The translations under genes were made by a program, and so were the position numbers. A DNA stretch of 28,229 nucleotides from positions 1-28,229 of the forward strand of contig JBFXGD010000032.1 in NCBI GenBank assembly GCA_050178385.1, read 5' to 3'. The notes beneath the pieces were generated by a model. The model was given only the letters and a program-made list of their open reading frames with translations. It did not search any database and was not told the DNA's origin. The stretch comes from Calditrichaceae bacterium. GTDB lineage: Bacteria > Calditrichota > Calditrichia > Calditrichales > JBFXGD01. Shown here piece after piece: positions 2-21,523 of the stretch (the first letter of the stretch is position 1; each line of letters opens with the position of its first letter).

Positions 2-961
2 GCGCATGGAACTCACTACGAGATAGATGATTTCTATGACGCCATGCTGGCAACGCATCCGACGGAAAGCTGGGGGGGAAACACATATCCTTCATTGGAT
101 GAAGATGAAGATACCTGCAATGTCATCCTGCATCTTGCTACCGTTACAAACGGTGAATTATCATATCGTTCCTACAAGAATCTTGAAGAAAAAGTCGGAT
201 TGCCGTTAGCTGATCTTGTGGAGAAATCCAGAGATGTGAGAGTGGGATACACCGATCTTCAGGCGCAGCCCCGGCGATTCGTAAACAGCCCCATGTGGTC
301 TGGCCTGGTAACGGACGGCAGAGCTTATTCTCCGTTCACCTATAATGTGGAAAGGGATGTGCCCTGGAGAACGTTGACGGGAAGACAGCATTTCTATCTT
401 GATCATCCCGGTTATATTCAATTCGGTGAACATCTGCCCACTTATAAACCGAAACCCTCACCATCACAATACGCGGATCTGACATTCAGTGATAAAGAAA
501 CAAAATCGATGATGCTGAATTATTTAACTCCGCACGGGAAATGGCATATTCATTCGACCTATGGGGACAACCACCGCATGACAACGCTTTCACGGGGTGT
601 TGAACCTTTCTGGATGAATGATAAGGACGCGGCCGAACTCAGCATCAATGACAACGACTGGGTTGAAGTGTATAACGACAACGGGGTTGTGGTAACGAGA
701 GCATGCGTCAGCGCCCGTATTCCAAGGGGAATTTGTATTCAGTATCATTCACCTGAGCGCACATTCTCGGTTCCAAAATCCCCCATGCGCGGAAATCGGC
801 GGGCTGGCGGACACAACAGTCTGACGAGGACCCGTTTGAAGCCCAATATGCTGGTTGGAGGATACGGGCAGTTTACATTTCATTTTAACTATTGGGGACC
901 TACGGGATCAAACAGGGATACACATATTCTGGTTCGAAAACTTCCCGAATTAAATTGGTAA
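2..961 (+). CDS. narG: Respiratory nitrate reductase / nitrite oxidoreductase alpha subunit, C-terminal part (5' truncated by window edge)
   Basis: Frame is open from position 2 to TAA at 961. NarG C-terminal motifs are present: [57 protein letters not shown]. Lies directly upstream of narH. Confidence 0.96.
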
Positions 962-985
962 TAACGATTCAAGAGGAAATATAAA

Positions 986-2476
986 ATGGATGTCAGATCG
1001 CAAATATCAATGGTTTTTCACCTCGATAAATGTATCGGGTGCCATACATGCAGCATCGCGTGTAAAAATATCTGGACCGACCGCAAGGGAACGGAGTACA
1101 TGTGGTGGAATAATGTTGAGACGAAACCGGGCACGGGATATCCGACAAAGTGGGAGGATCAGGAGAAATATAACGGAGGATGGCAGTTAAATAAGAACAA
1201 ACTCACGTTAAAGTCAACCGGAAAAGCGCGAATCGTCGCTAATATTTTTCATAATCCATCCATGCCGAGCATGGCGGATTATTATGAACCGTGGACATAT
1301 AAATATGATGAATTGTTCAACGCGCCGGAAGGGAATGATCAACCGACAGCCACGCCGGTTTCAATGGTTTCCGGTAAATACATAGATATCGAATCCGGAC
1401 CGAACTGGGATGATGATTTAAGCGGATCCCCCGTTTATGCCGAAAATGATCCAAACTTTACCGCGCTTACCGAAGAACAGAAAAGTCAGCTCTTTGCCAT
1501 TGAACGTCTGATGTTTTTTTATTTTCCGAGAATTTGTAATCATTGTATCAATCCGGCCTGTGTCGCTTCTTGTCCTTCTGGCGCGTTGTATAAGCGTGGT
1601 GAGGACGGAATTGTTCTTCTTGATCAGGAAAGATGCCGCGGCTGGCGGTCCTGTGTATCCGCCTGTCCGTATAAAAAGACATACTATAACTGGTCAACCG
1701 GTAAATCAGAAAAGTGTATTTTGTGTTTTCCGCGTATCGAAACGGGCCAGGCGCCTGCTTGTTTTCATTCCTGTGTGGGAAGAATCAGGTATCTCGGTGT
1801 TTTGCTTTATGACGCGGATAGGATTGATGAAACCGCGAAAAAAAGTGACAAGGAACTGGTTGAAGCGCAGCGTGATATGATATTGGATCCATTTGATCCT
1901 GAAGTCATAAAAGCGGCCCGGGAAAACGGCATCCATGATGATGTGATCAAATCCGCTCAAAAATCTCCGGTCTATAAATTTGTAAAAGAGTGGAAACTGG
2001 CTCTGCCACCGCATATTGAATACAGAACCTTGCCCATGTTGTTTTATGTGCCGCCAATGCTTCCTGTTATTTCAAGTTTTGACGGAAAAACAGTCAAAAA
2101 TGAAGCGGAAGGGCTTTTTCCTGATTTTGATAAAGCGCGCGCTCCGATCGAATACCTGGGTAAAATGTTTGCGGCGGGAAATAACAGTAAAATACGGTAT
2201 GTACTGAAAAAACAAATGGCAGTCCGGAATTATCGCCGGGCGGTCACAGTAGGTGATATTGAAATGAATGTGGCGGAGAAAATGCTCCTGGAAGCGGATT
2301 GCTCGGTGGCGGAAGCGGAATCCATATATAAGCTGACTTCTCTCTGTACCTTCAATGACCGGTTTGTTATTCCGCCGTCTCACAGGGAAGAGGCGATCGA
2401 AATGATGAAGGATCCACTAGAACATAAACAATCCGTTGGATTTGGATTCAGAGAAGAACCGAAGAGGGGATTATAA
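986..2476 (+). CDS. narH: Nitrate reductase / NXR beta (Fe-S) subunit
   Basis: Four Cys groups: CIGCHTCSIAC, CNHCINPACVASCP, CRGWRSCVSACP ([3Fe-4S]-type with Trp) and CILC...CFHSC. NNVETKPG motif; GAGG RBS. Confidence 0.97.
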   Translation: MDVRSQISMVFHLDKCIGCHTCSIACKNIWTDRKGTEYMWWNNVETKPGTGYPTKWEDQEKYNGGWQLNKNKLTLKSTGKARIVANIFHNPSMPSMADYYEPWTYKYDELFNAPEGNDQPTATPVSMVSGKYIDIESGPNWDDDLSGSPVYAENDPNFTALTEEQKSQLFAIERLMFFYFPRICNHCINPACVASCPSGALYKRGEDGIVLLDQERCRGWRSCVSACPYKKTYYNWSTGKSEKCILCFPRIETGQAPACFHSCVGRIRYLGVLLYDADRIDETAKKSDKELVEAQRDMILDPFDPEVIKAARENGIHDDVIKSAQKSPVYKFVKEWKLALPPHIEYRTLPMLFYVPPMLPVISSFDGKTVKNEAEGLFPDFDKARAPIEYLGKMFAAGNNSKIRYVLKKQMAVRNYRRAVTVGDIEMNVAEKMLLEADCSVAEAESIYKLTSLCTFNDRFVIPPSHREEAIEMMKDPLEHKQSVGFGFREEPKRGL

Positions 2477-3018
2477 TGAATAAGATGTTCAATTCATTTG
2501 CGGAAGTATTTTCTTATCCTGTGATAGACTATCAAAAAAATACAGCGGAGCTCGGAAAACAGATTGATGTTGATGAAGAAAATCGTCAAAAATATGATGA
2601 ATTTATAAAGTATGTTGAAAGAACCGAACTTTCTGATATCGAAGAGCTGTTTACCAGATCGTTTGATATGAATCCTTTAACCTGCCTGGAAATAGGATGG
2701 CATCTATACGGAGAAGATTATCAGCGCGGAGAATTTCTTGTCAAAATGAGACAATCGCTGGAAGAGTTCAAAATCACCGAGTCAGTCGAATTGCCGGATC
2801 ATCTCAGCCATTGTCTTAAATTGATGGCAGTGCTTGAGAGTGATGAGGTTCAGATTTTTTCGGAAAATTATCTCCTTCCGGCCATCGGGAAAATTCTAAA
2901 AAATTTCTCAGGTGATAATCCTTATAAACCGGTTATTGAAATTTTGAAATATGTAATTGATGAAAAATACGCCTCATCCGGAAAAATGTCCGGAGACAGA
3001 GTCTCAGCTCAAGTTTGA
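2476..3018 (+). CDS. narJ: Nitrate reductase molybdenum cofactor assembly chaperone (delta, TorD-like)
   Basis: Motifs LYGEDYQRG and ELPDHL. TAATG overlap with narH; sits between narH and narI. Confidence 0.9.
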   Translation: MNKMFNSFAEVFSYPVIDYQKNTAELGKQIDVDEENRQKYDEFIKYVERTELSDIEELFTRSFDMNPLTCLEIGWHLYGEDYQRGEFLVKMRQSLEEFKITESVELPDHLSHCLKLMAVLESDEVQIFSENYLLPAIGKILKNFSGDNPYKPVIEILKYVIDEKYASSGKMSGDRVSAQV

Positions 3019-3083
3019 TCCTGAGAATAAAAGTAAAAACTTAATTGGTAGAATCATTAAACCATAAGTATCAGGTGAAAATT

Positions 3084-3818
3084 ATGGCCCAAAATGCAGC
3101 TTTTTTTACATCATTGAATTTGTTCTGGTTCGCCGTACTTCCGTATGTCGCGCTCTTTACGTTTTTTGGCGTGACTATTTCTCGGTACAGAAAACACGGA
3201 TACAGCTATTCCAGTTTATCTTCCCAGTTTCTTGAAAACAGGGTTCATTTTTGGGGAATGGTTCCGTTTCACTACGGCATTATCACGCTTTTTTTCGGGC
3301 ATTTGATCGGTTTCCTGATCCCGTCACAGGTCCTGATTTGGAACAGCAATCCGCTCAGGCTTTATATCCTGGAGATAACCGCTTTTATAGCAGGTCTTTT
3401 TACACTGATCGGAATGGTCAATCTGTTTGCCCGCCGGCTGACAGACAGTAAGACAAAATCGGTGACAAGCCCGTTTGACTGGATTGTGCTGTCCATATTA
3501 TTCCTCCAGGTGATCACCGGTCTTTATACTGCTGTTTTTCACAGTTGGGGAAGCTCCTGGTTCGCGGCATCTATGACGCCGTACCTCTGGTCATTACTTA
3601 CTTTTACTCCCGATATCGCTTATGTGACACCAATGCCGATTATGGTTAAGCTTCATATTATAGGTAATTCTCTGATTGTCCTGTTATTCCCATTTACCAG
3701 GCTTGTTCATGTTCTGGTGGTTCCGAATCCGTATCTCTGGAGAAAACCGCAGCTTGTAAGGTGGAACTGGGACAGAAAAACAATTCGTACACCGGGATTT
3801 GTCATCAAACGTAAATAA
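3084..3818 (+). CDS. narI: Nitrate reductase gamma subunit (di-heme b membrane anchor)
   Basis: SSLSSQFLE motif. Heme-ligand His pairs in FHYGI...GHLIG and KLHI...FPFTRLVH; about 5 TM helices. ATG at 3084 after AGGTG is preferred over the ORF-track TTG at 3045. Confidence 0.93.
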   Translation: MAQNAAFFTSLNLFWFAVLPYVALFTFFGVTISRYRKHGYSYSSLSSQFLENRVHFWGMVPFHYGIITLFFGHLIGFLIPSQVLIWNSNPLRLYILEITAFIAGLFTLIGMVNLFARRLTDSKTKSVTSPFDWIVLSILFLQVITGLYTAVFHSWGSSWFAASMTPYLWSLLTFTPDIAYVTPMPIMVKLHIIGNSLIVLLFPFTRLVHVLVVPNPYLWRKPQLVRWNWDRKTIRTPGFVIKRK

Positions 3819-3839
3819 AGAACAGTATAAAGGAATCTT

Positions 3840-5174
3840 ATGAGACCCGATAAGCAGAACAGTTTACTTACCGGATCACCAATTAAAGCGTTATTTGGTA
3901 CGACAGCCGGTTTTTTTGTCGGATTTGCGGCGGTTTCGCTTTTTGGCCCGACCGCAAAGCTAATAAATCAGACGATGATGATGACATCCGTTCAGTTAGG
4001 CTTACTTGTGGCGATGCCGAATTTATCCGGTTCGCTGCTTCGTATTCCTTTTGGCGCCTGGGTTGATACGACCGGCGGAAGAAAACCATTCTTGATCCTG
4101 CTTCTATTGTCGTTTTTGGGTATGTCCGGTTTATTCATTCTGCTATATACAGTTGGTCCTGAAAATCTTAACATGAATCATTACCCTGTATTGCTGTTTC
4201 TGGCTCTATTTAGCGGATGCGGGATCGCGACATTTTCTGTGGGTATCGGGCAGGTATCCTATTGGTTTCCGAAACAGAAACAAGGCTGGGCGCTGGGAGC
4301 ATACGCAGGGTTCGGTAACATCGCCCCCGGTCTTTTTTCATTCCTTATTCCGCTGCTGATTGGGATTTTAGCATTAACCAATACGTATGCCGTTTGGCTG
4401 ATTGTGCTCGTCGCGGGGATTGTATTGTATTTCCTTTATGCCCCGAATGCTTTTTATTTTCAGATCCATAAAGAAGGCAAAGGAAAATCCGCCGGAGAAT
4501 CAAGGCATGTTGCTGCTGATGCCGGACAGGAAATTTTTCCACAGGGAGGCGTATTGGAGGGGCTGATCAAAGCGGCCTTAATCTGGAGAACATGGGCGCT
4601 TGTTTTTCTGTATTTCACGACTTTCGGTGGATTTCTGGCCCTTACTGTCTGGTTCCCGACATACTGGCAGGAATATTTCGGTACGGATCTGAAAACAGCC
4701 GGCGCGCTTACAATGCTATATTCGGTATTAGCGTCACTCGTAAGAGTCGCGGGTGGCAGCGCTTCTGACCGGTTTGGCGGTGTGCCTACCATCATATTTT
4801 CTATTACTACCATGATAATTGGAGCGGTTTTATTAATTTTTTCAAATATGACCATTCTCGCTATTACCGGTCTTATTCTGATGGCGGTTGGTATGGGGGT
4901 GAATAACGCCGGTGTATTTAAACTTGTGCCGCAGTATATCTCTGAGGCTGTCGGGGGAGGGGCCGGCTGGGTAGGCGGTTTAGGAGCTCTTGGCGGATTT
5001 CTTATCCCGCCTCTACTCGGATTTTTTGTTGAAAGCCAGGGCATTCAGGGCTACGCCAGCGGATTTTTTGTATTTGTCGGACTTGCTGCTTTGTCTCTTG
5101 TTGTAGTACTGTTCCTTAGAAAAACAGACATGACATCACAAGCTGAAGGTTTTGGACAGGTCGCCGAAAACTGA
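3840..5174 (+). CDS. narK: MFS nitrate/nitrite transporter (NarK family)
   Basis: About 12 hydrophobic segments. NNP-family Arg motifs GSLLRIPFG and ASLVRVAGG, plus YFTTFGGF and GGLGALGGF. Follows narI. Confidence 0.9.
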   Translation: MRPDKQNSLLTGSPIKALFGTTAGFFVGFAAVSLFGPTAKLINQTMMMTSVQLGLLVAMPNLSGSLLRIPFGAWVDTTGGRKPFLILLLLSFLGMSGLFILLYTVGPENLNMNHYPVLLFLALFSGCGIATFSVGIGQVSYWFPKQKQGWALGAYAGFGNIAPGLFSFLIPLLIGILALTNTYAVWLIVLVAGIVLYFLYAPNAFYFQIHKEGKGKSAGESRHVAADAGQEIFPQGGVLEGLIKAALIWRTWALVFLYFTTFGGFLALTVWFPTYWQEYFGTDLKTAGALTMLYSVLASLVRVAGGSASDRFGGVPTIIFSITTMIIGAVLLIFSNMTILAITGLILMAVGMGVNNAGVFKLVPQYISEAVGGGAGWVGGLGALGGFLIPPLLGFFVESQGIQGYASGFFVFVGLAALSLVVVLFLRKTDMTSQAEGFGQVAEN

Positions 5175-5214
5175 GAAATTTTAAATCGAAATGTGTATTC
5201 AGGAATGGTGAAAA

Positions 5215-5868
5215 ATGACTAACAGGAATATTGCTATTGTATTGATAATCGCCCTCTTCGCGGGGACGCTGATTTATATGAGCAGTGTTAATCTGAATCT
5301 GCCGGGAATCAGTCAGGGATACGCTCCGGAACAGCCAGTGGCATTTTCACACAGACTTCATAGCGGCGATTTGCAAATGGCCTGTACCTATTGCCATAAC
5401 GGCGCTGAACGAAGCAGATACGCGGTGATTCCCGATGCGGCAACATGCATGAATTGTCATCGGTTTGTAACATCAAGATGGGATAAAGTTAAAATTGAGG
5501 AACAGAAGGCGCAGGAAGAAAACAGGCCTGCAAAACTGATTGTTTCTGACCAGTTACAAAAAGTCTATGACGCGGTCGGCTTTTCTACCGATGAGATGAA
5601 ATATATGGGAGAAACCGGACAGCCAATCGAATGGGTTCGTGTCTATAAAGTTCCCGATTTTGTATTCTTTGATCACCGCAGGCATGTTAATGGCGGTGTG
5701 GCGTGTCAGACCTGTCACGGACCTGTTGAAACCATGGAAAAAGTCACACAAATCCCTGATTTGACCATGGGATGGTGCGTGAATTGTCACAGGGATGTCA
5801 ATAACGGACTCGTTCCGGAATTGAAAGGTAAATATGCTTCAACAAGCTGTACGGTTTGCCATTATTAA
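5215..5868 (+). CDS. actA: Alternative Complex III pentaheme cytochrome c subunit (cytochrome c3-like, N-terminal TM anchor)
   Basis: Five CxxCH motifs (CTYCH, CMNCH, CQTCH, CVNCH, CTVCH). Typical ActA motifs GYAPEQPVAFSHRLH, PDFVFFDH and MGWCVNCHR. Confidence 0.92.
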   Translation: MTNRNIAIVLIIALFAGTLIYMSSVNLNLPGISQGYAPEQPVAFSHRLHSGDLQMACTYCHNGAERSRYAVIPDAATCMNCHRFVTSRWDKVKIEEQKAQEENRPAKLIVSDQLQKVYDAVGFSTDEMKYMGETGQPIEWVRVYKVPDFVFFDHRRHVNGGVACQTCHGPVETMEKVTQIPDLTMGWCVNCHRDVNNGLVPELKGKYASTSCTVCHY

Positions 5869-5925
5869 ATGTTCGATACATGGATAAATTGAACTATTAA
5901 GAAAAAAAAATAACGGAAAATAAGC

Positions 5926-8900
5926 ATGTCAACTGATCAGGAAAAGAAATACTGGAAGGGTATTGAAGAAAGAGAAAATACCAAAGAATTTCAGGAAACA
6001 CTTGAAACTGAATTCCCTGAACCGGTATCGTTGAGCAAATTTCTTGAAAAAGATTCAAAACTGGCAAAATCCGGATTATCACGCCGGTCTTTCTTAAGAG
6101 CAGCCGGTTTTACCGTTACAGGTTCGATTTTGGCTTCCTGTGTTAAGGGGCCGGTTGAGAAAGCGATTCCGCTGCTGAACCGACAGGAAGAAGTTGTTCC
6201 GGGTGAGGCATACTGGTACGCTTCAACCTGCAGAGGCTGCGAAGCCTCCTGCGGAATTTTGACAAAAAATAGTGACGGCAGGCCGGTGAAAATTGAAGGC
6301 AATCCTGAGCATCCGATTTCAAAAGGCGGTGTCTGCGCTGTTGGGCAGGCGTTGATTCTTGGTCTCTATGATTCACAGAGACTGCAAAAGCCGATGCGCG
6401 CCGGTATTCCTGTCGAGTGGTCGGTGATTGATAGGGATATTACGTCAGAACTCAAGAATATCAACGACGGTGTTTATTTTTTGACGGGCACGCTGGCAAG
6501 TCAAACGACCGGCGCAATGATCGCCCGATTTTTAGAAAGATATAAGAAGAGCGGGCATATTGAATATGATCCTGTTTCATATTCCGCGATCCTTGATGCG
6601 CATGAAAAAACATTTGGCAATAGGATCCTTCCACATTACCGGTTTGATCTCGCTGACGTGATTGTAAGTTTTGACGCGGATTTCCTGGGTACATGGATCT
6701 CTCCCGTAGAGTTTACCAAAGCATATACATCGAAGAGAAGACCGGATGAGTCCGTTAACGGATATTCTTATCATATTCAGTTTGAGGGCCGGATGTCATT
6801 GACGGGCTCAAATGCCGACCGGAGAGTGACCGTTACGCAAGATGAGAGCGTTATTACATTAATGGCAATCGCTGAAATATTATCAAAAAAATCCGGTACA
6901 GAGGCTTTGCCATGGAATTCTGTTGAGCCGACCACAAAAGTAGATCGTGAACAGATTGATGATCTTGCGGATACCCTTTGGGAATCGAAGGGGAGAAGTC
7001 TTATCATAAGCGGAATGAATGATACTGAGACGCAGTCGGTGGTAAATTATATAAATTTCCTTCTTGGCAATTATGGCAAAACGATTGAAACGGATAATCC
7101 TTCCTATCAGTGGCGGGGAAATGACCGGGCCTTTCAGGAACTAGTTGAAAAAATGGAAACCGGTGAAGTAAAGGCACTGATTTTGTCTGATGTAAATCCG
7201 GTATACAGTTATCCCGATCAGCAGAGATTTATAAAAGCGCTCAAAAATGTACCGTTAACCATTTCCTTCAGCGATCATCATGATGAGACATCCGAATTGG
7301 TCAGATATGTCTGCCCGCCGGATCATCCGCTTGAATCCTGGGATGATTTCAGGATCACGGGAAGTGTTATCGGTATGTCACAGCCGGTAATCCCAAAACT
7401 GGGAGATACCCGTTCATTACGCAAGTGTCTGGCGATGTGGATGAATGACACCCGGGCAGATTTGGAGATCATGCAGGAGTATTGGAAAAAAAACTTGTTC
7501 AGGATGCAGAATCAGGAACCGGATTTTCAAAAATTTTGGGATAAATCGGTTCATGACGGATTTGCGAATCTGCAACAGAAAACTGTCAGGTTGAGCGATT
7601 TCCGGATGGGAACACTGACTCGACCGGAAATTATGAATGCGGAAAATGAAGACGGATTTGAACTTGTGCTCTATCAAAAAATCGGGATGCTGGACGGGCG
7701 CAACGCTCATAATCCCTGGCTGCATGAACTGCCTGATCCGATCACTAAAGTTGTATGGGATAATTACGCCTGTATGGCTCCGGCCACGGCCGGCGAATTA
7801 GAGGTTGAACAGGGAGATGTGGTCAGTTTGACCATGCATGACAGGGAGATTAAACTCCCGGTTCTTCTGCAGCCCGGGCAGCATAAAAATGTTATATCTG
7901 TCGCGCTGGGTTACGGGCGAAAAGGAACGGACCGTTTTTCGGAAATAGGGCCGCAATGGCTGGAGAGCCGTCTGACGGTTGAGAAGGGCGGGACGGTTGG
8001 AAAGAACAGCTTTATCTTTGTAACCAGCCGGAACCGGAATTTTTTCTATTCAGGCCGTGTGACAGTCAATCCGACGGGTGAAAGCGCGCATCTTGCGCTC
8101 ACTCAAACACATCAGACGATTACGGAACCGAAAAACCTGGGCGGGCATCGCCGCAATATGGTTCGTGAAACGGTTGTATCGGAATTTAAAAATGATCCCT
8201 CTTCCGGAAATCATTTTGAACATGAAAGTCTGCAATTGTGGGAGAATGATCATGTCTATACCGGTTATCACTGGGGTATGAGCATTGATCTCAACCGGTG
8301 TACAGGATGTTCCGCCTGTGTGATCAGTTGTCAGGCTGAAAATAATATACAGGTTGTAGGAAAAGACGAGGTGTACCGCAGGCGGGAAATGCACTGGATC
8401 CGGATCGATCGTTATTATTCCGGAGATGACGGCGATGTTGATGTGCTGCATCAACCGGTCATGTGCCAGCATTGTGATCACGCGCCCTGCGAAGGAGTTT
8501 GTCCTGTTCTGGCGACCGTTCACAGCGATGAGGGAATCAATCAGCAAATATATAACCGGTGCGTTGGAACCCGGTATTGCGCGAACAACTGTCCTTATAA
8601 GGTTCGCAGATTCAATTGGTTTGAATATCTGACTGAGGAGAAGAAAGAAAATCTTGTCCTGAATCCCGACGTCACGACACGTTCAAGAGGCGTAATGGAA
8701 AAATGTTCTCTTTGCGTACAACGAATTCAGGATGTAAAAGCGAAAGCAAAACGGGAAAACAGACCGATCGCTGATGGTGAAATTAAGGTCGCCTGTCAGC
8801 AGTCATGCCCGGCGGATGCCATTGTTTTCGGGGATAAATTAAACCCGGAAAGCCGCATCGCAAAAATCAAAGTGAATCCTCGACATTACCATATGTTGGA

Positions 8901-8976
8901 AGAATTGAATTTCCGGCCAAATGTCGGATATATGACCAAGGTGCGTAATGATAATAAATTAGACGGAGAGGTTTAA
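5926..8976 (+). CDS. actB: Alternative Complex III subunit B (Tat-exported molybdopterin-oxidoreductase-like domain fused to a 4Fe-4S ferredoxin domain)
   Basis: KYWKG N-terminus, Tat motif SRRSFLR and lipobox-like [17 protein letters not shown] and [13 protein letters not shown] motifs. C-terminal Fe-S motifs [37 protein letters not shown] and CSLC..CQQSCP. Confidence 0.94.
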
Positions 8977-8980
8977 CAGC

Positions 8981-10399
8981 ATGTCCATGACCTATTCGGC
9001 ACTTAGAAAGCCAATAATTGAAGGAAATAAATCCCTCAAACAGGTAACAGACGATATCTCGAAGCCTCTGGAAAAAAAGCCGACAAAATTATGGTGGATC
9101 GCTTTTATTTCAGCTTCTTCATTTCTGATGCTGGGTATCGCGGCCGTCAGTTATCAGATCAAAGTCGGGATCGGAACCTGGGGTCTTAACAAGACAGTGG
9201 GCTGGGCGTTTGATATCACTAATTTTGTTTTCTGGGTTGGAATCGGTCACGCCGGCACATTGATTTCCGCTATCCTGTTTCTATTTAGGCAACGATGGCG
9301 AACTTCGATCAACCGCTCAGCCGAGGCAATGACTTTGATCGCCGTTATGTGCGCGGGCATCTTTCCGTTAATACATATGGGACGGCCTTGGTTTTTTTAC
9401 TGGATCGCGCCATACCCGAATTTCAGAGGTCCGCTTTGGGTGAATTTCCGTTCACCGTTATTGTGGGATTTTTTCGCGATAAGCACATATTTTACGATCT
9501 CGGCGGTATTCTGGTATATCGGATTGATACCGGACATGGCGACTCTCCGGGACAGAGCGAAAACAAAGATCAGAAAAATGGTTTACACCATCATGAGTTT
9601 TGGGTGGAACGGATCCATGCGCACCTGGCATCGTTATGAAACCACCTATATGCTTCTTGCCGCCCTGGCGACTCCTCTTGTATTGTCGGTGCATTCAATT
9701 GTGAGCATGGATTTTGCCACATCGGTCATTCCGGGATGGCACACCACTATTTTTCCACCATATTTTGTCGCGGGCGCTGTGTTTTCAGGTTTCGCCATGG
9801 TGCTGACTTTAATGATTATCGCGAGGAAAGTGCTCAACTACGAAGAATATATCACTCTGAATCATCTGGAAAAAATGAGTAAAATCATCATCGTGACCGG
9901 TGGAATCGTTGCCTTCTCCTATGCGACCGAAATGTTTATGGCATGGTATTCGGTCAATGAATATGAACGGTTTGTGTTCATAAATCGAGCCTTTGGGCCT
10001 TACGCCTGGGCGTACTGGACCATGGTGACGTGTAATGTTTTTATTCCTCAGTTATTCTGGTTTAAAAAGATCAGAACGAATCTCGTGACCCTGTTTATTA
10101 TCTCAATCGTAATTAATATAGGGATGTGGTTTGAAAGGTTTGTAATAATAGTCACGTCTTTGCACAGGGATTTTTTGCCTTCGAGCTGGGCTATGTACGC
10201 TCCAACAAGTATAGAAATCGCGACGCTGCTCGGTAGTTTTGGTTTGTTTTTTACCGTATTCCTTCTGTTTGCCCGATTCCTTCCTTTTATCGCCATTGGA
10301 GAGGTGAAGGGAGTATTGACTTACGGCAGGAGGAGAGAAAATAAAGAAACAGAGAAATCGGTTGAAGTTCCGATGGCAGCCGAAACTGAATCTGTATGA
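8981..10399 (+). CDS. actC: Alternative Complex III subunit C (NrfD/PsrC-family quinol-binding membrane subunit)
   Basis: Motifs [61 protein letters not shown] and GMWFERF. Confidence 0.95.
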
Positions 10400-10423
10400 T
10401 TTTGATCTGAGAGAGGTAGATAG

Positions 10424-10951
10424 ATGAAAAATCCGTTATTGTTGGGGATATTTGCTGATGAAGATGATATCATCAGGGCCACGCGGGCCACTCGGTCAGC
10501 CGGTTATGACATTTTTGACGTCTATACTCCCTATGCGGTTCATGGGCTGGATGAAGCCATGGGGCTCAAACCGAGTAAGTTGACATGGGTTTGTTTAATC
10601 TCAGCGGCATTGGGATTATTACTGGCGGTTTATACGCAGTTTTGGATTGGATCGATTGACTGGCCGCTTAATGTTGGCGGAAAACCATTCAACTCGCTTC
10701 CGGCTTATTTGCCGGTAATGTTCGAAATGACGATCCTGGTCGGTGGACTGGGGGTGGTCTTTATGTTGCTCTTCAGAACAAAGCTTTATCCCGGAAATTT
10801 AAAAAAGCTTGTGGATAATCAGGTGACTGATGATCATTTTGTACTTGCTCTGGAAGAAAAAAACGCATCCTATGATGCGGAAATACTAAAAAATCTATGG
10901 GAACAGTATCATGTCATAGATATCAGGGAGTATATGGAGGCCGGTAAGTGA
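10424..10951 (+). CDS. actD: Alternative Complex III subunit D (DUF3341)
   Basis: Motifs DVYTPYAVHGLDEAMG, DWPLNVGGKP and P..FEMTIL; two TM helices. Confidence 0.92.
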   Translation: MKNPLLLGIFADEDDIIRATRATRSAGYDIFDVYTPYAVHGLDEAMGLKPSKLTWVCLISAALGLLLAVYTQFWIGSIDWPLNVGGKPFNSLPAYLPVMFEMTILVGGLGVVFMLLFRTKLYPGNLKKLVDNQVTDDHFVLALEEKNASYDAEILKNLWEQYHVIDIREYMEAGK

Positions 10952-11514
10952 AGAAGCTATTCGGAGTTACCATTATCATAGTTGGTACATTATTTGTTCT
11001 AAGGATTTTATTAGGGCAGGACCCTGAAAAACGTAACCGGGATTATTATCCGGATATGGCAAAAACGTACGCATATAAATCCCAGACTCCCAATCCTTTT
11101 TTTAACAACGGTCAGACACAGCAAAAAACTGTAGAAGGAACAATTCCAAGGGGTATGATGCCGCTCCATTACGGCGCTTCAGCGGAGGAAGCTTTCCGCG
11201 CGGGTGATGAGTTGTTAAATCCTTTCGGTCCGGACAACCTGGCCGATTTAGCGAGGGGGCAGGTAGTATATCAAACATTTTGTCAGATGTGTCATGGGCC
11301 TGGTGGGAAGGGAGACGGTCTTGTGGTTCAGAGAGGGTATCCGCCTCCGCCATCATTACTGCTTGACAGGATCAGACTTATGAAAGATGGACAGATTTTT
11401 CATACAATCACGTTTGGTTTTAACAATATGCCGCCCTACGCGACACAAATTGAAAGATTTGATCGCTGGCAGGTGATAGCATATATAAGAAAATTACAAG
11501 AGAGTCAGCTATGA
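10948..11514 (+). CDS. actE: Alternative Complex III monoheme cytochrome c subunit E
   Basis: GTG start overlapping the actD stop (GTGA). PDM and VEGTIPRG motifs; single CQMCH; distal Met region DGQIFHTITFG..NMP. Confidence 0.9.
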   Translation: MKKLFGVTIIIVGTLFVLRILLGQDPEKRNRDYYPDMAKTYAYKSQTPNPFFNNGQTQQKTVEGTIPRGMMPLHYGASAEEAFRAGDELLNPFGPDNLADLARGQVVYQTFCQMCHGPGGKGDGLVVQRGYPPPPSLLLDRIRLMKDGQIFHTITFGFNNMPPYATQIERFDRWQVIAYIRKLQESQL

Positions 11515-12686
11515 TAAAAAATATTTCGGGATTGGTTATTCCAAAAGCTGTGAATCGATATTTGTTAAGTATAGCGGGGGTGGGATTACTTATTTTTGTC
11601 GCTGGTCTGTTTACCGCGCCGGGTCGTATATGGCCTAATTTTTTGATCGCGGAATTTTATTTGATCAGTCTTGGTCTTGGAGGCGCGTTTTTTATTGCCG
11701 TTTTATATGTTTCCAATGCCGGATGGGGAACGGCATTCCGCAGAATCCCGGAAGCAGTCATGTCAACTTTGCCCGCGGCGGCGATCGGAGCTATCATACT
11801 AGTTTTCGGGATACATACGCTATACGAATGGAGTCATCACTCTGTTGTGGTCAGCGATGATATATTGAGCGGAAAAGCAGGGTGGCTGAATAAGAGTTTT
11901 TTTATTAGCCGATTAGTATTTTATTTCTTTATCTGGATTTTCTTTACTAAGATCATCGAAAAAAATTCAAGGCTTCAGGATCAAAATGGCGATGTTCTTT
12001 ATACAAAAAAAAATGTTCGAAACTCGGCCATATTTATCATTCTGGGAGCTTATACTTTCGCTCTGGCCAGCATTGACCTGCTGATGTCGCTGCAGCCGCA
12101 TTGGTACAGCACTGTCTTTGGATTTCTGTCTATCTCGGGAATGTTCCTCAGCGGACTGGCGATCATTACAGTATTTATGGTAATTATGCGAAATCTTGGA
12201 TACAAACATATTTACACAACAGATCACCTGCAGGATATGGGACGGCTGCTCATGTCGTTCAGCGTATTTTGGGTCTATATGTGGGTTTCACAGCATATGC
12301 TTATCTGGTATTCGAATATACCCGAAGAAACCTCCTATTATATTTTCCGGCATTTCGGGGGATGGGGATCATTATCATTTTTAAATGTGATTCTAAACTG
12401 GCTGATTCCCTTTCTGGTATTACTGCCGCGCTCCACAAAAAGGAATGATAAAATTATGCTGTATATGGCTGTGGTCATCCTTATCGGTCACTGGCTTGAT
12501 CTTTATATAATGGTAATGCCGACAGTATTTGGAGCTGAACCGGCTTTTAGCATCTGGGAAATTGGACCCATGATGGTTGTACTCTCTGGGTTCTTCTGGA
12601 TTGTGTTTAAGCGGCTCTCCAAAGGAAATCTTATCCCTGTGAATGATCCGTATCTGGTTGAAAGTCTTCCGCAGCATGAACATTAG
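11511..12686 (+). CDS. actF: Alternative Complex III subunit F (NrfD-like membrane subunit)
   Basis: ATGA overlap with actE. Motifs RRIPEA, YEW, DLLMSLQPHWYSTVFG, QHMLIWYSNIPEE and GHWLDLY. Confidence 0.9.
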   Translation: MIKNISGLVIPKAVNRYLLSIAGVGLLIFVAGLFTAPGRIWPNFLIAEFYLISLGLGGAFFIAVLYVSNAGWGTAFRRIPEAVMSTLPAAAIGAIILVFGIHTLYEWSHHSVVVSDDILSGKAGWLNKSFFISRLVFYFFIWIFFTKIIEKNSRLQDQNGDVLYTKKNVRNSAIFIILGAYTFALASIDLLMSLQPHWYSTVFGFLSISGMFLSGLAIITVFMVIMRNLGYKHIYTTDHLQDMGRLLMSFSVFWVYMWVSQHMLIWYSNIPEETSYYIFRHFGGWGSLSFLNVILNWLIPFLVLLPRSTKRNDKIMLYMAVVILIGHWLDLYIMVMPTVFGAEPAFSIWEIGPMMVVLSGFFWIVFKRLSKGNLIPVNDPYLVESLPQHEH

Positions 12687-12705
12687 TTAAATCACGGATG
12701 TCATT

Positions 12706-13119
12706 TTGAGATTATCAAAAACCACCGAATATGCCATCAGAGCTTTGATTTATCTTGCAAACGATGAGAAGCAAATTTATTCCGTCAATTATCTTCATAA
12801 GGAATTGGATATACCCTACAAATACCTGGCTAAACTGATGCATAATTTATCGGAAGCGGGATTTGTTTATTCTGTGCAGGGTAATCAGGGCGGATATCGG
12901 ATTAACAGGAATAAATCAGATATCTATCTATATCAAATTGTCGATGTTGTGGAAGGCCTTGACGATTATTCCCGCTGTATCCTGGGGTTTGACAAATGCA
13001 ATGATGAAGACCCTTGTCCTATGCACTTTTACTGGACGGAAGAAAGAGGGCATCTTACGGAGATGTTGTATAAGATATCGCTGAATGACCTTTGTAAAAG
13101 CCTCAAGAAAAGAATTTGA
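12706..13119 (+). CDS. Rrf2-family Fe-S transcriptional regulator
   Basis: MRLSKTTEYAIRALIYLA N-terminus; wHTH with SVQGNQGGY; C-terminal C-x6-C-x5-C-x2-H. TTG start. Confidence 0.92.
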   Translation: MRLSKTTEYAIRALIYLANDEKQIYSVNYLHKELDIPYKYLAKLMHNLSEAGFVYSVQGNQGGYRINRNKSDIYLYQIVDVVEGLDDYSRCILGFDKCNDEDPCPMHFYWTEERGHLTEMLYKISLNDLCKSLKKRI

Positions 13120-13217
13120 TCAAACTGATTTCCGATTCTAACCACTATATTGAAATGATTCCCGCTCGATAATTTGATCTTTCGGTTTCAATTAAATCCA
13201 AAAAAACACCTAATTTT

Positions 13218-13246
13218 TTGCATGTGATATTTAATATTTGTATATT
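13218..13246 (+). promoter_or_regulatory. Putative sigma70 promoter upstream of the qNor gene
   Basis: TTGCAT (13218-13223), 17-bp spacer, TATATT (13241-13246). The AT-rich context makes a chance match possible. Confidence 0.45.
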
Positions 13247-13290
13247 CCCACTCGCTGGTGGTAATTAAGGCAATATTTTTTTATATGTAT

Positions 13291-13332
13291 ATACTACCGT
13301 CACATAGCATTTGGTGCCGGTAGTATTTTTTT
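13291..13332 (+). terminator. Intrinsic-terminator-like hairpin in the rrf2-nor intergenic region
   Basis: ATACTACCGTCAC ... GTGCCGGTAGTAT forms a 13-bp stem with one mismatch, followed by a T tract ending at 13332. Confidence 0.6.
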
Positions 13333-13377
13333 AAACACAAATACCACATGAAGGTAGAAATACAAACTGGAGGTTAT

Positions 13378-15594
13378 ATGAACAATTTTATTGAGCGGCT
13401 GATGAGCAGGAAAGGGCTCTACGCGTCGTTCTGGTTTATCGCTATCGTTATGGTGGCGGCGCTCATTTACTATTCAGCGGGACTTGTGAAAGAAGTGCCG
13501 CCGATACCGGAACAGGTTGTCTCAGAATCCGGTGAAGTTCTTTATTCATACGATGATATTGTTGAAGGAAAGGGATATTTCCAGCAGTTTGATTTAATGG
13601 ATTACGGCACACTGCTGGGTATGGGAGCATATCTTGGCCCGGACTTTACATCAGACTTTTTCCATAAACGCGCCGAATTTCTATATGACTATTATGGTAA
13701 GGAAATGTATGGTGTTCCCATGTCATCATTAACAGAAGAACAAACAGGCGCGGTGAAGGTCAGAGTTAAAAACGACTTTCACAAAAAAACAATATTAACG
13801 GAAAAAAGTGTGGTTTATACCGCCGCTTCAACTGCCGCCTATAAAGCAAATGTTGATTATCTTGTCGATTTTCTGGTTAATGGAAACAGGGAGAAGGGAT
13901 TTACCGGCGGGGTGATCAGAACGGATGAAGCCGTTAAAATTGCCGCGTTTGTGGATTGGTCTCAGATGGTGTCCTCATCCATTCGTCCGGGAACAGATTA
14001 TACCTGGTCGAATAACTGGCCGCACGAACCTTTGGTTGATCAGGATTCAAGCTGGAATAATGTATTCTGGTCGCTTATGCAGCTTCTGCTTTTATGGACG
14101 CTGACCATTATCGTGTTTTATCTGCTCTATGAATATGTCATCAAACGTGATAAAAATGAGCAGCCGGAACCTCCGCTTAAAATTGAGAAATTATTTCCGT
14201 CACAGAAGAAACTTCTTAAATATGTTCCGGTAGTGACGCTGTTTTTTCTTCTCCAGGTCATTCTTGGCGGATATATTGCTCATATTTATACAGATCCGGC
14301 AAATGATTTTATTATTTCTCAAAATATCCTGCCGTTCAATGTCATGCGCGCACTGCACGTCAATATCGCCATTGTCTGGGTGACAATCGGCTGGCTCGTA
14401 GGGGGTATGTTTATCGCTCCTCTTGTCGGTAAGGAAGATCTTCGATTCCCATGGCTGGTGGATGTATTATGGCTGGCACTGCTAGTTGTCGGCGCCGGCG
14501 GATTGTACGGTATTTATATGGGTGCCACCGGTGAGATGCGTGAAGTATGGTTCTGGTTAGGAAACGAAGGGCGTGAATATCTTAATCTTGGCCGTGTTTG
14601 GGATATTGGTCTTGTGGTGGGACTTGTTCTCTGGTTTTTCATGGTATATACAACCATCCGCAAGGCAAAAACGAACAATGTGATGGTCGGGACTATTATA
14701 TGGTCCGCATTTGGTATCGCCACTTTATATATGGCGGGTATGGCTCCTGTGCACAAAATAATGCCAAATTTCACTATCGATGATTATTACCGCTGGTGGG
14801 TTGTTCATCTATGGGTTGAGTTGACATTTGAACTATTCGCTGCCGGTGTTCTGGCTTATTTAACCGTCGTGCTGGGTCTTGTGCCAAGAAAAACAGCTGA
14901 ACGCGTTATGTTGTTCGAATTGTTTCTGGTCGCGCTCTCGGGTACCCTCGGAGTGGGACACCATGTCTGGTGGCAGGGAACGGATCAATACTGGATTGCC
15001 ATTGGCAGCACCTTCTCAGCTCTGGAACCGGTACCATTGGTTGTGCTGATGATTGAAGCCTGGAAAGAGTACAAAAAGATACAGACTGAAGGGACAAATT
15101 TTGCATTCAAAACACCGTTTATGTGGCTGACCGGTTCCGCTATCCTGAACTGGTTCGGCGCGGGATTCCTCGGAATGGTGATTAATACACCTGAAGTTAA
15201 CTACTATGCGCATGGCACTTATTTGATTATGCCTCATGGTCATGTAGCATTGCTTGGCGCTTTCGGTTACATTGCCATCGCGTTTATTTATATAACGGCA
15301 AGAGCCAATGCCATGGCCAAAGGTCTGGTATGGAAGGAAACATTAAGCCGCTGGGGATTCTGGTTGGTAACCGTCGGAATAATCCTGTATACAGTCCCGA
15401 CTCTTGTTATCGGATTTGAGCAGGCTAAAGTTGCCTCGGAACTTGGGTATTATGCAGCCCGAAGCAGGGAGACTCTTGAAAGCATGGGATTCTGGCTCTG
15501 GATTCGTCTTGTACCGGATACAATGCTCATATTAGGAGCATCGCTCGTATTTATTGATTCATTACAAAAAACATTTCTGGCAAAAAAAGCTTAA
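13378..15594 (+). CDS. norZ: Quinol-dependent nitric oxide reductase (qNor, heme-copper oxidase superfamily)
   Basis: GGAGG RBS before ATG 13378. Motifs GAYLGPDF, WSNNWP, RALH, WWVVHLWVE..FE, GVGHH, SALEPVP, HGH and RLVPD. N-terminal soluble domain lacks CxxCH. Confidence 0.88.
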   Translation: MNNFIERLMSRKGLYASFWFIAIVMVAALIYYSAGLVKEVPPIPEQVVSESGEVLYSYDDIVEGKGYFQQFDLMDYGTLLGMGAYLGPDFTSDFFHKRAEFLYDYYGKEMYGVPMSSLTEEQTGAVKVRVKNDFHKKTILTEKSVVYTAASTAAYKANVDYLVDFLVNGNREKGFTGGVIRTDEAVKIAAFVDWSQMVSSSIRPGTDYTWSNNWPHEPLVDQDSSWNNVFWSLMQLLLLWTLTIIVFYLLYEYVIKRDKNEQPEPPLKIEKLFPSQKKLLKYVPVVTLFFLLQVILGGYIAHIYTDPANDFIISQNILPFNVMRALHVNIAIVWVTIGWLVGGMFIAPLVGKEDLRFPWLVDVLWLALLVVGAGGLYGIYMGATGEMREVWFWLGNEGREYLNLGRVWDIGLVVGLVLWFFMVYTTIRKAKTNNVMVGTIIWSAFGIATLYMAGMAPVHKIMPNFTIDDYYRWWVVHLWVELTFELFAAGVLAYLTVVLGLVPRKTAERVMLFELFLVALSGTLGVGHHVWWQGTDQYWIAIGSTFSALEPVPLVVLMIEAWKEYKKIQTEGTNFAFKTPFMWLTGSAILNWFGAGFLGMVINTPEVNYYAHGTYLIMPHGHVALLGAFGYIAIAFIYITARANAMAKGLVWKETLSRWGFWLVTVGIILYTVPTLVIGFEQAKVASELGYYAARSRETLESMGFWLWIRLVPDTMLILGASLVFIDSLQKTFLAKKA

Positions 15595-15603
15595 TATAAA
15601 CAC

Positions 15604-15635
15604 AAGACGGAGGGGTATCCCTCCGTTTTTGTTTT
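15604..15635 (+). terminator. Rho-independent terminator after qNor
   Basis: ACGGAGGG-GTAT-CCCTCCGT hairpin followed by a T-rich tract, about 10 nt after the stop. Confidence 0.85.
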
Positions 15636-15824: not shown

Positions 15825-16718
15825 TTGCTGACACCTGTCATATTTGGCGAAGTACTATTTGATATATTTGAATCGACTCACTCCGTACTTGGAGGGGCGC
15901 CGTTCAATGTAGCCTGGCATTTAACCGGATTCGGTATGAATCCGGTTTTCATAAGCCGGGTCGGAAATGACGCGCCTGGAACGGAGGTATTAAAAAAAAT
16001 GAGTTCATGGGGTATGAATAAAAGCGGAGTACAGACTGACCACGAGCATCCGACAGGGAGAGTAAGGGTTGAAATGCATGATAAGGAACCGGAGTACACC
16101 ATTGAATCCGATCAGGCGTATGATTTTATCGCTCCCCCGGAACCGGCGGTTTTGCAACATGTGGATCAGACCATTCTTTATCACGGTTCTCTCGCTCTGC
16201 GAAATGCACAATCCCGGCTTGCGCTGTCTGATTTGAAAAAACGTTCACCGGTATTAGTCTTTTTTGATGTAAATTTGCGTCAGCCATGGTGGAAAAAAGA
16301 AACAATTCTGGAAGAACTATCAGATACGGACTGGTTAAAGTGTAATGAACAGGAACTGAAAGAAATCATCCGTTTGATGGGTACGCCGGAAAAAACCAGG
16401 GAAAAGCTGGCATTCCGGGTGATCGAATATTTTGATTTGAAAGGTATTGTGGTGACTATGGGCAGCAAAGGCGCCTTGATGGTCAGAAATGACGGTGATG
16501 TCCGTTATACTAATCCTAATCCGGTCGCGGAATTGGTTGATACGGTTGGGGCAGGAGACGCTTTTGCGGCGGTCACGATCATGGGGTTGCTTAAAAATTG
16601 GGAAGGGCAGCAAATTTTAGACAGAGCTTCTGAATTTGCCGCGGAGATCTGCCGGATAAGGGGAGCGACGATAGAAAGGCTTGAACTTTATCAATCGAAA
16701 AATGAATTATGGGGGTAA
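15825..16718 (+). CDS. PfkB-family carbohydrate kinase, probable fructokinase
   Basis: Motifs FGEVLFD, GGAPFNVA, FDVNLR and the PfkB signature DTVGAGDAF. TTG start with GAGGTG RBS; first gene of the sucrose cluster. Confidence 0.9.
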   Translation: MLTPVIFGEVLFDIFESTHSVLGGAPFNVAWHLTGFGMNPVFISRVGNDAPGTEVLKKMSSWGMNKSGVQTDHEHPTGRVRVEMHDKEPEYTIESDQAYDFIAPPEPAVLQHVDQTILYHGSLALRNAQSRLALSDLKKRSPVLVFFDVNLRQPWWKKETILEELSDTDWLKCNEQELKEIIRLMGTPEKTREKLAFRVIEYFDLKGIVVTMGSKGALMVRNDGDVRYTNPNPVAELVDTVGAGDAFAAVTIMGLLKNWEGQQILDRASEFAAEICRIRGATIERLELYQSKNELWG

Positions 16719-16720
16719 AA

Positions 16721-18910
16721 ATGACGAGCAATGAAGCGGATGGTCTGTACATTCTGCTGTTAAGTATTCACGGTCTCGTTAAGGGGCAAAGTCCGGAACT
16801 GGGACGTGACGCGGATACCGGGGGGCAGATAAAATATGTGGTTGAATTTGCGCAGGCTCTCTCAAAAAATCCGCGGGTCAAGCGGGTGGATTTGCTGACA
16901 AGACTGATTACCGATAATAAAGTTGATGAAATTTACAGCCGGCATCTGGAAAAAATATCAGATAAGGCGAATATCGTGAGAATACCTTGCGGTCCGGGAA
17001 GATATCTAAGGAAAGAAGTACTTTGGAACTATCTGGATGTGTTTTCTGATCAGGCCGTACAGTATATAAGACGCGCGGGTCAGGTTCCGGATATCATACA
17101 CGGTCATTATGCGGATGCGGGTTATGTGGGCGCTCAGATATCCCGGCTGCTTGGTGTGCCTTTCATTTTCACCGGTCATTCCCTGGGAAGAATTAAGAAA
17201 GAGCATTTAATGGAAAAGGGCATGATTATTCCGAAAATGGAAGCCCGCTACAACATAAGTCACCGGATCGACGCGGAAGAATTTGCTCTGGATACCGCCG
17301 CGCGCGTTGTGACCAGTACCGTTCAGGAAGTGGAAGAACAGTATAAAATTTATGAAAATTACGCGCCTGAAAGGATGGTTGTCATACCACCGGGTGTTGA
17401 TCTGGAGATATTTTCGCCATCTTCCCATCCCGGGGCGGCATCAAAAATTACGGAGGATATAAATAAGTTTTTATCCGACAGAAAAAAACGAATGATTCTG
17501 GCTATGTCGAGAGCCGATGAAAGAAAAAATATTGAGGCGCTCATCCATGCCTATGCGGGGAATGAATATTTGCGAAATAATGCAAATCTTGTTATTATTG
17601 CCGGCAACCGCAATGATATAAAATCCCTTGAAAAGGGGTCGCGAAAAGTTCTTACCAATATTCTGCTGCTTATTGATAAATATGACCTGTATGGAAAAGT
17701 GGCATATCCCAAAAGTCATGCTCCAGAAGATGTACCAGATATATACAGAATGGCCACTAAGTCAAAAGGAGTATTTGTAAATCCTGCCCTGACTGAACCA
17801 TTCGGGCTGACTATTATTGAAGCTGCCGCGAGTGGATTGCCCGTGGTGGCGACAAATGACGGCGGTCCAAATGATATCATAAGCAATTGCAGAAACGGCC
17901 TGCTGGTTGATCCTCTGGATCCGGAGAAAATGGGAAAAGCGGTTCAGAAGGTGATTGAGGACAGGAATCAATGGAAAGTTTATTCGAAAAACGGTCTAAA
18001 AGGTGTGAAAAAATATTATTCATGGAATAGTCATGTAAAAAAATATCTATCGATGACAAATAAAATTCTTAATAAAGGAGCTTATAGACAGAATGTCATG
18101 AGACTTGCGAAAAGCCGTTTGCCTTTAGTTGATAGAATGATAATCACGGATATCGATAATACGCTCCTGGGTGACGCGGAGGCTTTAAGAGAATTTATCG
18201 AATATCTGAAAATGCATGGAGAACATACCGGGCTTGGCATAGCAACGGGAAGACGGCTGGAGAGCGCCATTGAGGTGCTTTCTGAATCGGGTCTGCCGAT
18301 ACCAGATGTATTTATCACCTCCGTTGGAAGTGAAATCAACTATGGTCCGGAAAAAATTGAAGACCGTACCTGGTCACACCATTTGAAGTATTATTGGAAA
18401 CCCGAATTAATAAGGGATGTTCTCGGGAAACTTGAGGGTTTGAGATTACAGCCGGACATTGACCAGAGAAAATATAAAATAAGTTATTATCTGGATCCCG
18501 GGAACGCTCCCGGAAGAAACAAAATTATCGGTCACCTGAGAAAACACAAGTTGCGTGTAAAAGTCATTCATTCCCATAATGCTTACCTTGATATATTACC
18601 AATCCGCGCTTCAAAGGGTCTGGCTGTCAGATATCTGGCGATGAAATGGGGTTTACCGCCCGAGAGAATACTGGTGGCCGGTGATTCCGGAAATGACGAA
18701 GAAATGTTAAGGGGAAATATGCTGGGAGTTGTTGTGGGGAATTTTAGTTCTGAACTTAAACGACTTTACGGAAAACCAAGGATATATTTTGCTGAGAACA
18801 CTTATGCCAGAGGTATATTAGAAGGAATTAAGCACTACAATTTTTTTGGAGAACAGATTATAACGGGAGAGGAAAATGAATATGAATATGATTCAGAAAA
18901 CCATAGATGA
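16721..18910 (+). CDS. sps: Sucrose-phosphate synthase (GT4) fused to a HAD sucrose-phosphate phosphatase domain
   Basis: GT4 motifs [32 protein letters not shown] and [15 protein letters not shown] motifs TDIDNT, ATGR, SKG and GDSGND. Start is 16721 or the in-frame ATG at 16709. Confidence 0.94.
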
Positions 18911-21321: not shown

Positions 21322-21523
21322 ACTCGTAAAAATATTTACATGCCAATATAATTCTTTGGATTATTCCCGTTCAATAAACCGTTCTATCTGAAATCGAAGG
21401 AATAATTTAAAATTCACAAAATTCTGATTTCTCCGGATCAATTTAATTTATTAACAGATATAAAAGAGTGGTTGTAAAAAAATAGCAGAAGTAAGGTTGT
21501 TCAATCAAACCAAAGGGGAGAGT

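Follow-up and report, generated by a model that had tools for sequence, protein, structure and literature searches.

The stretch of DNA considered here, hereafter the window, is an entire contig of 28,229 nt (C32, GenBank JBFXGD010000032.1) from a Calditrichaceae bacterium, whose 3.9 Mb genome is assembled in 320 contigs and is 94% complete. It carries the genes of a respiratory nitrate reductase (narGHJI) and a transporter (narK) joined to the six genes of an alternative complex III (ACIII; actABCDEF), followed by an rrf2 regulator gene and by qNor. All 13 genes from narG to qNor lie on the forward (+) strand at the positions given in an earlier sequence-only reading of the window, which were checked by open reading frame (ORF) and profile analysis. 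From narG to rrf2 the successive intergenic gaps are 24, -1, 26, 21, 40, 57, 4, 24, -4, -4, and 19 nt, and the 26 nt between narJ and narI become 65 nt when counted up to the next ATG. The co-orientation, the gaps of at most 65 nt, and the overlaps (three in total) described in that reading for narGHJI-narK-actABCDEF-rrf2 are thus borne out by the ORF coordinates. It had also seen no terminator between narK and actA; our terminator scan gave no match in this 40-nt gap, a result to be taken as weak evidence because the scan returned 29 matches, compared to 18.6 in shuffled sequences. The strongest match lies after qNor, where an intrinsic terminator-like hairpin with an 11-pair stem and a T tail (15604..15629, + strand) closes the block. 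As had been stated, cox, nirS, nirK, nrfA, and nosZ are absent from the window, with none found among the 22 ORFs scanned.

The contig start cuts narG, so that the window holds the C-terminal 319 codons of this cytoplasm-facing nitrate reductase alpha subunit (2..961; TIGR01580 positions 918-1233). Another contig, C80, shares 244 nt with the beginning of the window, the four differences all being synonymous and at third positions. It supplies the remaining narG (first 987 codons, TIGR01580 positions 24-990) together with narC, the genes of a two-component system, and a sigma-54-like promoter. No twin-arginine motif was found at the NarG N-terminus. The narC gene (C80:10969-11829) precedes narG and encodes a 286-residue dihaem cytochrome c with two CxxCH motifs and a hydrophobic C-terminal segment; the operon is therefore headed, as in the Thermus type, by a membrane-anchored dihaem cytochrome c. 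The Fe-S beta subunit gene narH (986..2476) scores 670 bits to TIGR01660, over the cut-off, and the chaperone gene narJ (2476..3018) is over the cut-off for PF02613 and below it for TIGR00684. The dihaem b membrane subunit is encoded by narI (3045..3818, probable start 3084; TIGR00351 over cut-off), in which the four haem ligands H76, H86, H204, and H222 are present when aligned to 1Q16_C. With NarG, NarH, and NarI all over curated cut-offs and no signal for twin-arginine translocation (Tat), this is a respiratory NarGHI. It is followed by a narK-like nitrate/nitrite transporter of the major facilitator superfamily (3840..5174; PF07690; TIGR00886 E 2e-50, below cut-off). A second narK (54% identity) is located at another contig end of the genome (L013:12668-13632).

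The ACIII part comprises six subunits in order, from a pentahaem ActA to a monohaem ActE and ActF. ActA (5215..5868) has five CxxCH motifs and, like nar-linked copies in general, some 33 extra residues separating haems 2 and 3, the median haem spacing being 86 vs. 53 in oxidase-linked copies. ActB (5926..8976; TIGR04519 and QrcB/QrcC profiles) is a Tat lipoprotein with a molybdenum-free MopB domain and four Fe-S motifs; its RR motif is present, and its cysteine motifs match those of the oxidase-linked copy. ActC (8981..10399), the NrfD-like quinol-binding subunit, scores 660 bits to 6BTM_C and 617 to 6F0K_C, and it retains 27 of the 27 quinol-site and half-channel residues of Rhodothermus marinus that are given in the relevant part of the structural report (PMC5928083). 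These are W75, H132, D163, and D244, corresponding to W82, H139, D169, and D253 of R. marinus, plus 23 more, and the same 27 are kept in 58 of 58 rows compared, with one D-to-E change. ActD (10424..10951) matches PF11821 with 173 bits, and the monohaem c subunit ActE (10948..11514) has, in common with nar-linked ActE generally, a hydrophobic N-terminal anchor without the lipobox cysteine that is found in 8 of 8 oxidase-linked copies. ActF (11511..12686) has no family match, its identity being 40% to the oxidase-linked ActF and 25% to ActC. Judging from the alignments, the ACIII of the nar cluster has its quinol-site and proton-path residues intact; with neither sco nor cox in the window or in the best 80 ActA loci described below, and with an ActE that is not a lipoprotein, it is not of the oxidase-linked type.

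The sequence-only reading had proposed looking for the same gene order in other genomes, and it is conserved. Among 86 Calditrichota genomes including this one, narI and actD are 6.7-9 kb apart on the same strand in seven (this one included), and in an eighth carrier they are split over two contigs; hence narGHJI-narK-actA-F recurs in 7 of the 85 other genomes of the phylum, in the order narC-narGHJI-narK-actABCDEF as far as the contigs reach. ActA was further compared with 185,579 species genomes, and the neighbours of the best 80 of at least 600 matching rows were examined. Nar genes lie upstream in 63 of these 80 loci, narK only in nine, and nothing recognised in eight (five in which the upstream DNA is short or no neighbour matches, and three planctomycete clusters of another kind), while cox genes stand beside ActA in none of the 80. 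The loci come from Acidobacteriota, Planctomycetota, Bacteroidota, Ignavibacteriota, Chlorobiota, KSB1, Verrucomicrobiota, Hydrogenedentota, Hinthialibacterota, Myxococcota, Elusimicrobiota, and Calditrichota. The gene preceding actA is narK in 57 and narI in 15, and NarK identities range from 25 to 69%, which suggests that the transporter is exchanged as nar and act stay together. In the reverse direction, using NarI loci from metagenomes with at least 3 kb downstream, act follows 16 of 18 NarI of the window's type (H68; four of the 16 are near-duplicates) and 0 of 11 NarI of the other NarC type. The nar-act linkage is not due to chance, and about a dozen bacterial groups share a nar-ACIII pairing that likely marks an unstudied electron route to nitrate. 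As a separate observation, two short loci with NarI of the other type (L193, L194) have actA directly behind (ActA 34-37% identity), possibly a second independent pairing of nar and ACIII.

Phylogenies point the same way. In a quick tree of NarH, 57 ACIII-linked rows and that of one further genome (G048) form one clade (SH-like approximate likelihood-ratio test 99), outside of which fall seven narC-only rows of the same phylum; besides its own clade, the carriers' Nar has its own invariant residues. The window ActC groups with nine other nar-linked copies (support 100), apart from eight oxidase-linked copies (99), all the latter from one phylum; L039 and L040, repeats of other loci, were left out of the trees. 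An ActC tree had been suggested to see whether nar-linked copies form their own clade. The window's group is separated from the oxidase-linked copies, and a single clade of all nar-linked ActC is not resolved: the quick tree needs three changes, three planctomycete rows are unresolved, and three non-nar planctomycete rows are nested. The nested copies (L082, L088, L115) belong to planctomycete ACIII clusters without nar, two having a four-haem ActE and one an upstream NarC-like cytochrome. A third ACIII-like cluster with a long ActC branch occurs in families f6-f8 of the phylum (L125, L126, L128, L138), with no match to cox, nar, or a separate actE.

An oxidase-linked ACIII is present elsewhere in the genome, as the earlier reading had asked to be checked: contigs C74/C108 carry a canonical ACIII-caa3 cluster of actA-G, sco, coxII (with a c haem), coxI, and coxIII, whose ActC and ActA are 64% and 35% identical to those of the window. 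Because of this separate cluster, the ACIII of the nar cluster is a nar-linked paralogue, and the claim that it is a nitrate-linked ACIII distinct from the oxidase-linked one is sustained by this second cluster, by gene order, and by the separate clades. The genome also encodes a cbb3 oxidase, cytochrome bd, two octahaem proteins, and a NosZ of the clade II type. Upstream of nosZ, its cluster includes genes of its own for a Rieske protein, a cytochrome b, a pentahaem protein, and an Fe-S flavoprotein (L141; contig C40:7000-16000). Of the acceptor genes that had been listed for checking, nosZ was thus found, with its own Rieske/cytochrome b, and nrfA, nirS, and nirK were not found in the search of this genome, in which nirS had no positive control. 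Candidates for the missing nitrite reductase are a Hao-like octahaem protein with a membrane pentahaem partner (L139:5474-8317) and a second octahaem protein (L140).

We tentatively propose, with a confidence somewhat short of even, that electrons run from quinol through ACIII, NarC, and NarI to NarHG, as a nitrate counterpart of ACIII-caa3. In this chain menaquinol would be oxidised at ActC, at the periplasmic face of the membrane; ActB and then ActA and ActE would hand the electrons to the dihaem NarC, from which they would reach the b haems of NarI, NarH, and finally NarG, the predicted site of cytoplasmic nitrate reduction. In favour of this reading are the separate oxidase-linked copy, the recurrent nar linkage, the NarH clade, the intact ActC residues, the lack of an outside acceptor shared by the carriers surveyed, and two carriers (G007 and G009) that have no haem-copper oxidase and no other ActD match. 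NarC, encoded off the window, is the likely link between ACIII and Nar, taking the part of the caa3 cytochrome c domain just as NarGHI would take that of the oxidase. Its first domain matches the N-terminal monohaem domain of Flavobacterium johnsoniae ActA (6BTM_A 57-149, E 1e-8), a hint only because the cytochrome fold is common. That ActA domain has been proposed to shuttle electrons to aa3 (PMC8552683), and the Thermus NarC binds NarI in two-hybrid tests (PMC7694296). If ActC moves protons as proposed for ACIII, the energy per nitrate would be higher than with quinol oxidation at NarI alone; the potential of the nitrate couple, +433 mV (PMC10100899), would allow additional charge to be moved should ACIII pump. 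The suggestion in the sequence-only reading of an association between Nar and ACIII is favoured, with a physical complex standing as a proposal; a structure prediction for ActA, ActE, and NarC together scored 0.00, which counts neither for nor against contact. A bolder version, in which a widespread undescribed nitrate supercomplex has ACIII replacing NarI as the quinol entry, driving the cytoplasm-facing Nar via NarC and pumping extra protons, is more doubtful still, even if worth entertaining.

Several points weigh against such a chain. NarI G85, H86, and R105 align with G65, H66, and K86 of E. coli NarI in 1Q16_C, with differing neighbouring residues, and these we take to form the E. coli quinol site at the distal haem. 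In ACIII-linked rows G85 is kept in 65 of 68, H86 in 68 of 68, and Arg at the K86 position in 68 of 68, so that no loss of the quinol site is apparent, and it would compete with ACIII. Loss of this site as a marker of ACIII dependence was rejected, as the K-to-R change is common to narC-only operons, where the same quinol-site residues occur in 10 of 10 rows. The step from the c haem to haem bD is presumably uphill, if potentials like those we assume for E. coli apply, and proton pumping by ACIII is itself a structural proposal. Three loci (G048 or L032, L167, and L183) have a Nar of the window's type with no act behind, probably through act losses. Finally, a survey of acceptors in 58 carriers (eight of the phylum and 50 of 61 other nar-linked loci; completeness values cover eight of the 58 genomes) found some haem-copper family member in 56, no nirS in any of the 58 by a search that had no positive control, and, in the five phylum carriers tested for them, Hao-like octahaem proteins in all five, which could be acceptors. 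An acceptor role would have a precedent in the Hao-like octahaem protein proposed for nitrite in C. abyssi (PMC5317091), and the Thermus NarC is proposed to carry electrons out of the enzyme (PMC7694296).

This last proposal, together with a NarI that looks able to bind quinol, keeps alive a parallel branch, in which NarI oxidises quinol itself and a co-regulated ACIII, along with NarC as in Thermus, provides reduced cytochrome c for the periplasmic acceptor available in a given host. This could be a high-affinity oxidase, cNor, NrfA, NosZ, or a nitrite reductase of the Hao-like kind. We consider this arrangement unlikely, yet it is the foremost rival. It draws on the 36 of 58 carriers with nirK (4), nosZ (14), or nrfA (24), on the five of five with Hao-like proteins, and on the NosZ, cbb3, and two octahaem proteins of the window's host; however, 22 of the 58 have none of nirS, nirK, nosZ, and nrfA (the union being counted by hand), most checked carriers already have another ACIII, and no reductase is consistently placed behind act in the best 80 loci. 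In the host, nosZ is accompanied by genes for Rieske, cytochrome b, and pentahaem proteins, the Hao-like gene adjoins a membrane multihaem cytochrome, and a parallel branch would leave unexplained a carrier Nar that forms a distinct clade with its own invariant residues. NosZ as a general target of nar-linked ACIII was rejected, being present in only 14 of 58 carriers. The earlier suggestion that this ACIII feeds a reductase encoded elsewhere is weakened for the same reasons, since there is no acceptor common to the carriers and the NosZ of this genome has its own Rieske/cytochrome b genes.

In an improbable second alternative, electrons flow in the reverse, Qrc-like direction, with periplasmic donors reducing ActA/ActE, ActC reducing menaquinone, and NarI re-oxidising the quinol for nitrate. 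The homology of ActA and ActB to the QrcA/B/C profiles, the kept NarI quinol-site residues, and a host rich in multihaem proteins are compatible with it, and Qrc is described as moving electrons from cytochrome c3 to quinone (PMC8076601). However, ActC resembles its counterparts in the quinol-oxidising ACIII of F. johnsoniae and R. marinus much more closely, none of the best 80 loci, as annotated with the reference set, carries a linked donor enzyme, and NarC would be left without a role. It is more improbable again that the enzyme is a cytoplasm-facing nitrite oxidoreductase (NXR) delivering electrons via NarC to an oxidase, with ACIII serving reverse electron flow, an option the sequence-only reading had raised and which is now disfavoured. 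A comparable cluster that includes a NarC homologue is described for Nitrobacter (PMC7694296), and an oxygen reductase is found in most carriers. Against this, G007 (100% complete) and G009 have no haem-copper oxidase, the nar-linked copy being their sole ActD match, G003 has only a qNor-sized haem-copper match, and in all three cytochrome bd is the remaining oxidase. RuBisCO was found in none of five genomes tested, where no test for the reverse tricarboxylic acid cycle was made, so that the cytochrome c oxidase and Calvin cycle expected of an NXR host are not found together, though the window's host has oxidases; its qNor and NosZ point to anaerobic respiration. The NXR sequence compared with NarG was the distant anammox NXR 7B04 rather than Nitrobacter NxrA. 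Chance juxtaposition or mis-assembly, conceivable in a 320-contig assembly with a break inside narG, has a negligible probability and is already refuted by the conserved gene order, seen in seven relatives and in 63 of the best 80 loci, from about 12 phyla.

The tail of the block is of another standing. The rrf2 gene (12706..13119, + strand; three cysteines, TIGR00738 over cut-off) is separated by 228 nt from qNor (NorZ; 13348..15594, + strand), which has PF00115, PF22085, and the metal-ligand motifs. An rrf2 match occurs in 14 of the best 80 ActA loci, mostly next to narC, and qNor stands behind act only in G038 and L075 among the loci seen. Among the eight phylum carriers, some with contigs that end early, the rrf2-qNor tail is confined to two genomes of the window's genus, this one and G038; qNor is therefore not in the conserved unit, and a place for qNor and rrf2 among the core parts of the block was rejected in favour of an accessory role. 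A second Rrf2 (55% identical) is encoded with a PepSY membrane protein and a DUF438-hemerythrin-PAS protein (L015:737-5436).

At the other end of the operon, C80 carries upstream of narC a HAMP sensor kinase and a sigma-54 activator with a receiver domain (Pfam), likely an uncharacterised nitrate or redox sensing system (L009:6943-10664 and 10670-10905). A sigma-54-like site (C80:10889; TGGCAY-N5-TTG[A/T]) and two GCATA-N6-TATGC palindromes precede narC, and this combination is found in seven of seven phylum operons of the window's Nar type with upstream DNA (six carriers and G048) and in none of six narC operons of the other type. The site occurs in shuffled sequences at most 0.004 times per region, the patterns having been fitted on these same sequences, and its -12 element departs from what we take to be the TTGC consensus. 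As rpoN is present in the genome, the narC-act cluster may be co-transcribed under sigma-54 control. Beyond the block, the window encodes a PfkB kinase, a sucrose-phosphate synthase/phosphatase fusion, and a sucrose synthase (15825-21269; TIGR02472, TIGR02471, and TIGR02470 over cut-off), and a secreted protein whose sole family match is a type IX secretion sorting domain (21497-22621).

Every part of the system comes from a known family, and what appears to be new is the nar-act combination. The ACIII-aa3/caa3 of F. johnsoniae (6BTM) and R. marinus (6F0K) have the same ActABCDEF set and order, the pentahaem ActA core, the molybdenum-free ActB, and all listed quinol-site and proton-path residues of ActC. 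Unlike them, the window copy is nar-linked without an adjacent oxidase, sco, or actG, its ActE has no lipobox, and its ActA carries the extra residues that follow haem 2 and precede haem 3 and is missing the sixth-haem domain, a homologue of which sits in NarC. In haloarchaea with a periplasmic Nar, a quinol-oxidising complex III is encoded alongside and would raise the energy yield; there a Rieske/cytochrome b complex is combined with an outward-facing NarG, whereas in the window ACIII takes its place, NarI is retained, and NarG is without a Tat signal. QrcABCD of sulfate reducers combines homologous multihaem, molybdenum-free MopB, Fe-S, and NrfD-like modules in anaerobic respiration, but Qrc profiles are far below cut-off here, ActD, E, and F are present, and Qrc reduces quinone. 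The narCGHJIKT operon of Thermus thermophilus shares a dihaem membrane-anchored NarC ahead of narGHJI and narK, a likeness of layout; as described (PMC7694296) it is without act genes and under the control of DnrST/DrpAB, in contrast to the ACIII behind and the predicted sigma-54 and two-component control of the operon considered here. A description of a nar-act operon was not found in the full-text literature searched, and subscription reviews of ACIII gene clusters may mention one.

ACIII has been treated as an aerobic or photosynthetic complex; a 2023 survey states that the ActB family is known to act exclusively in aerobic respiration (PMC10100899), and another paper names ACIII as an electron donor in the reduction of N2O (PMC9270275). 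A nar-linked lineage in about a dozen groups, some of whose members are without a haem-copper oxidase, does not fit this view. It calls for a different reading of act genes in genomes from sediment and soil, and it offers an oxygen-free system for testing whether ACIII moves protons. If the bolder supercomplex version is true, this would be the first ACIII shown to end on a non-oxygen respiratory enzyme within its own operon, and nitrate respiration would have a higher energy yield in Acidobacteriota, Planctomycetota, Bacteroidota, Calditrichota, and others.

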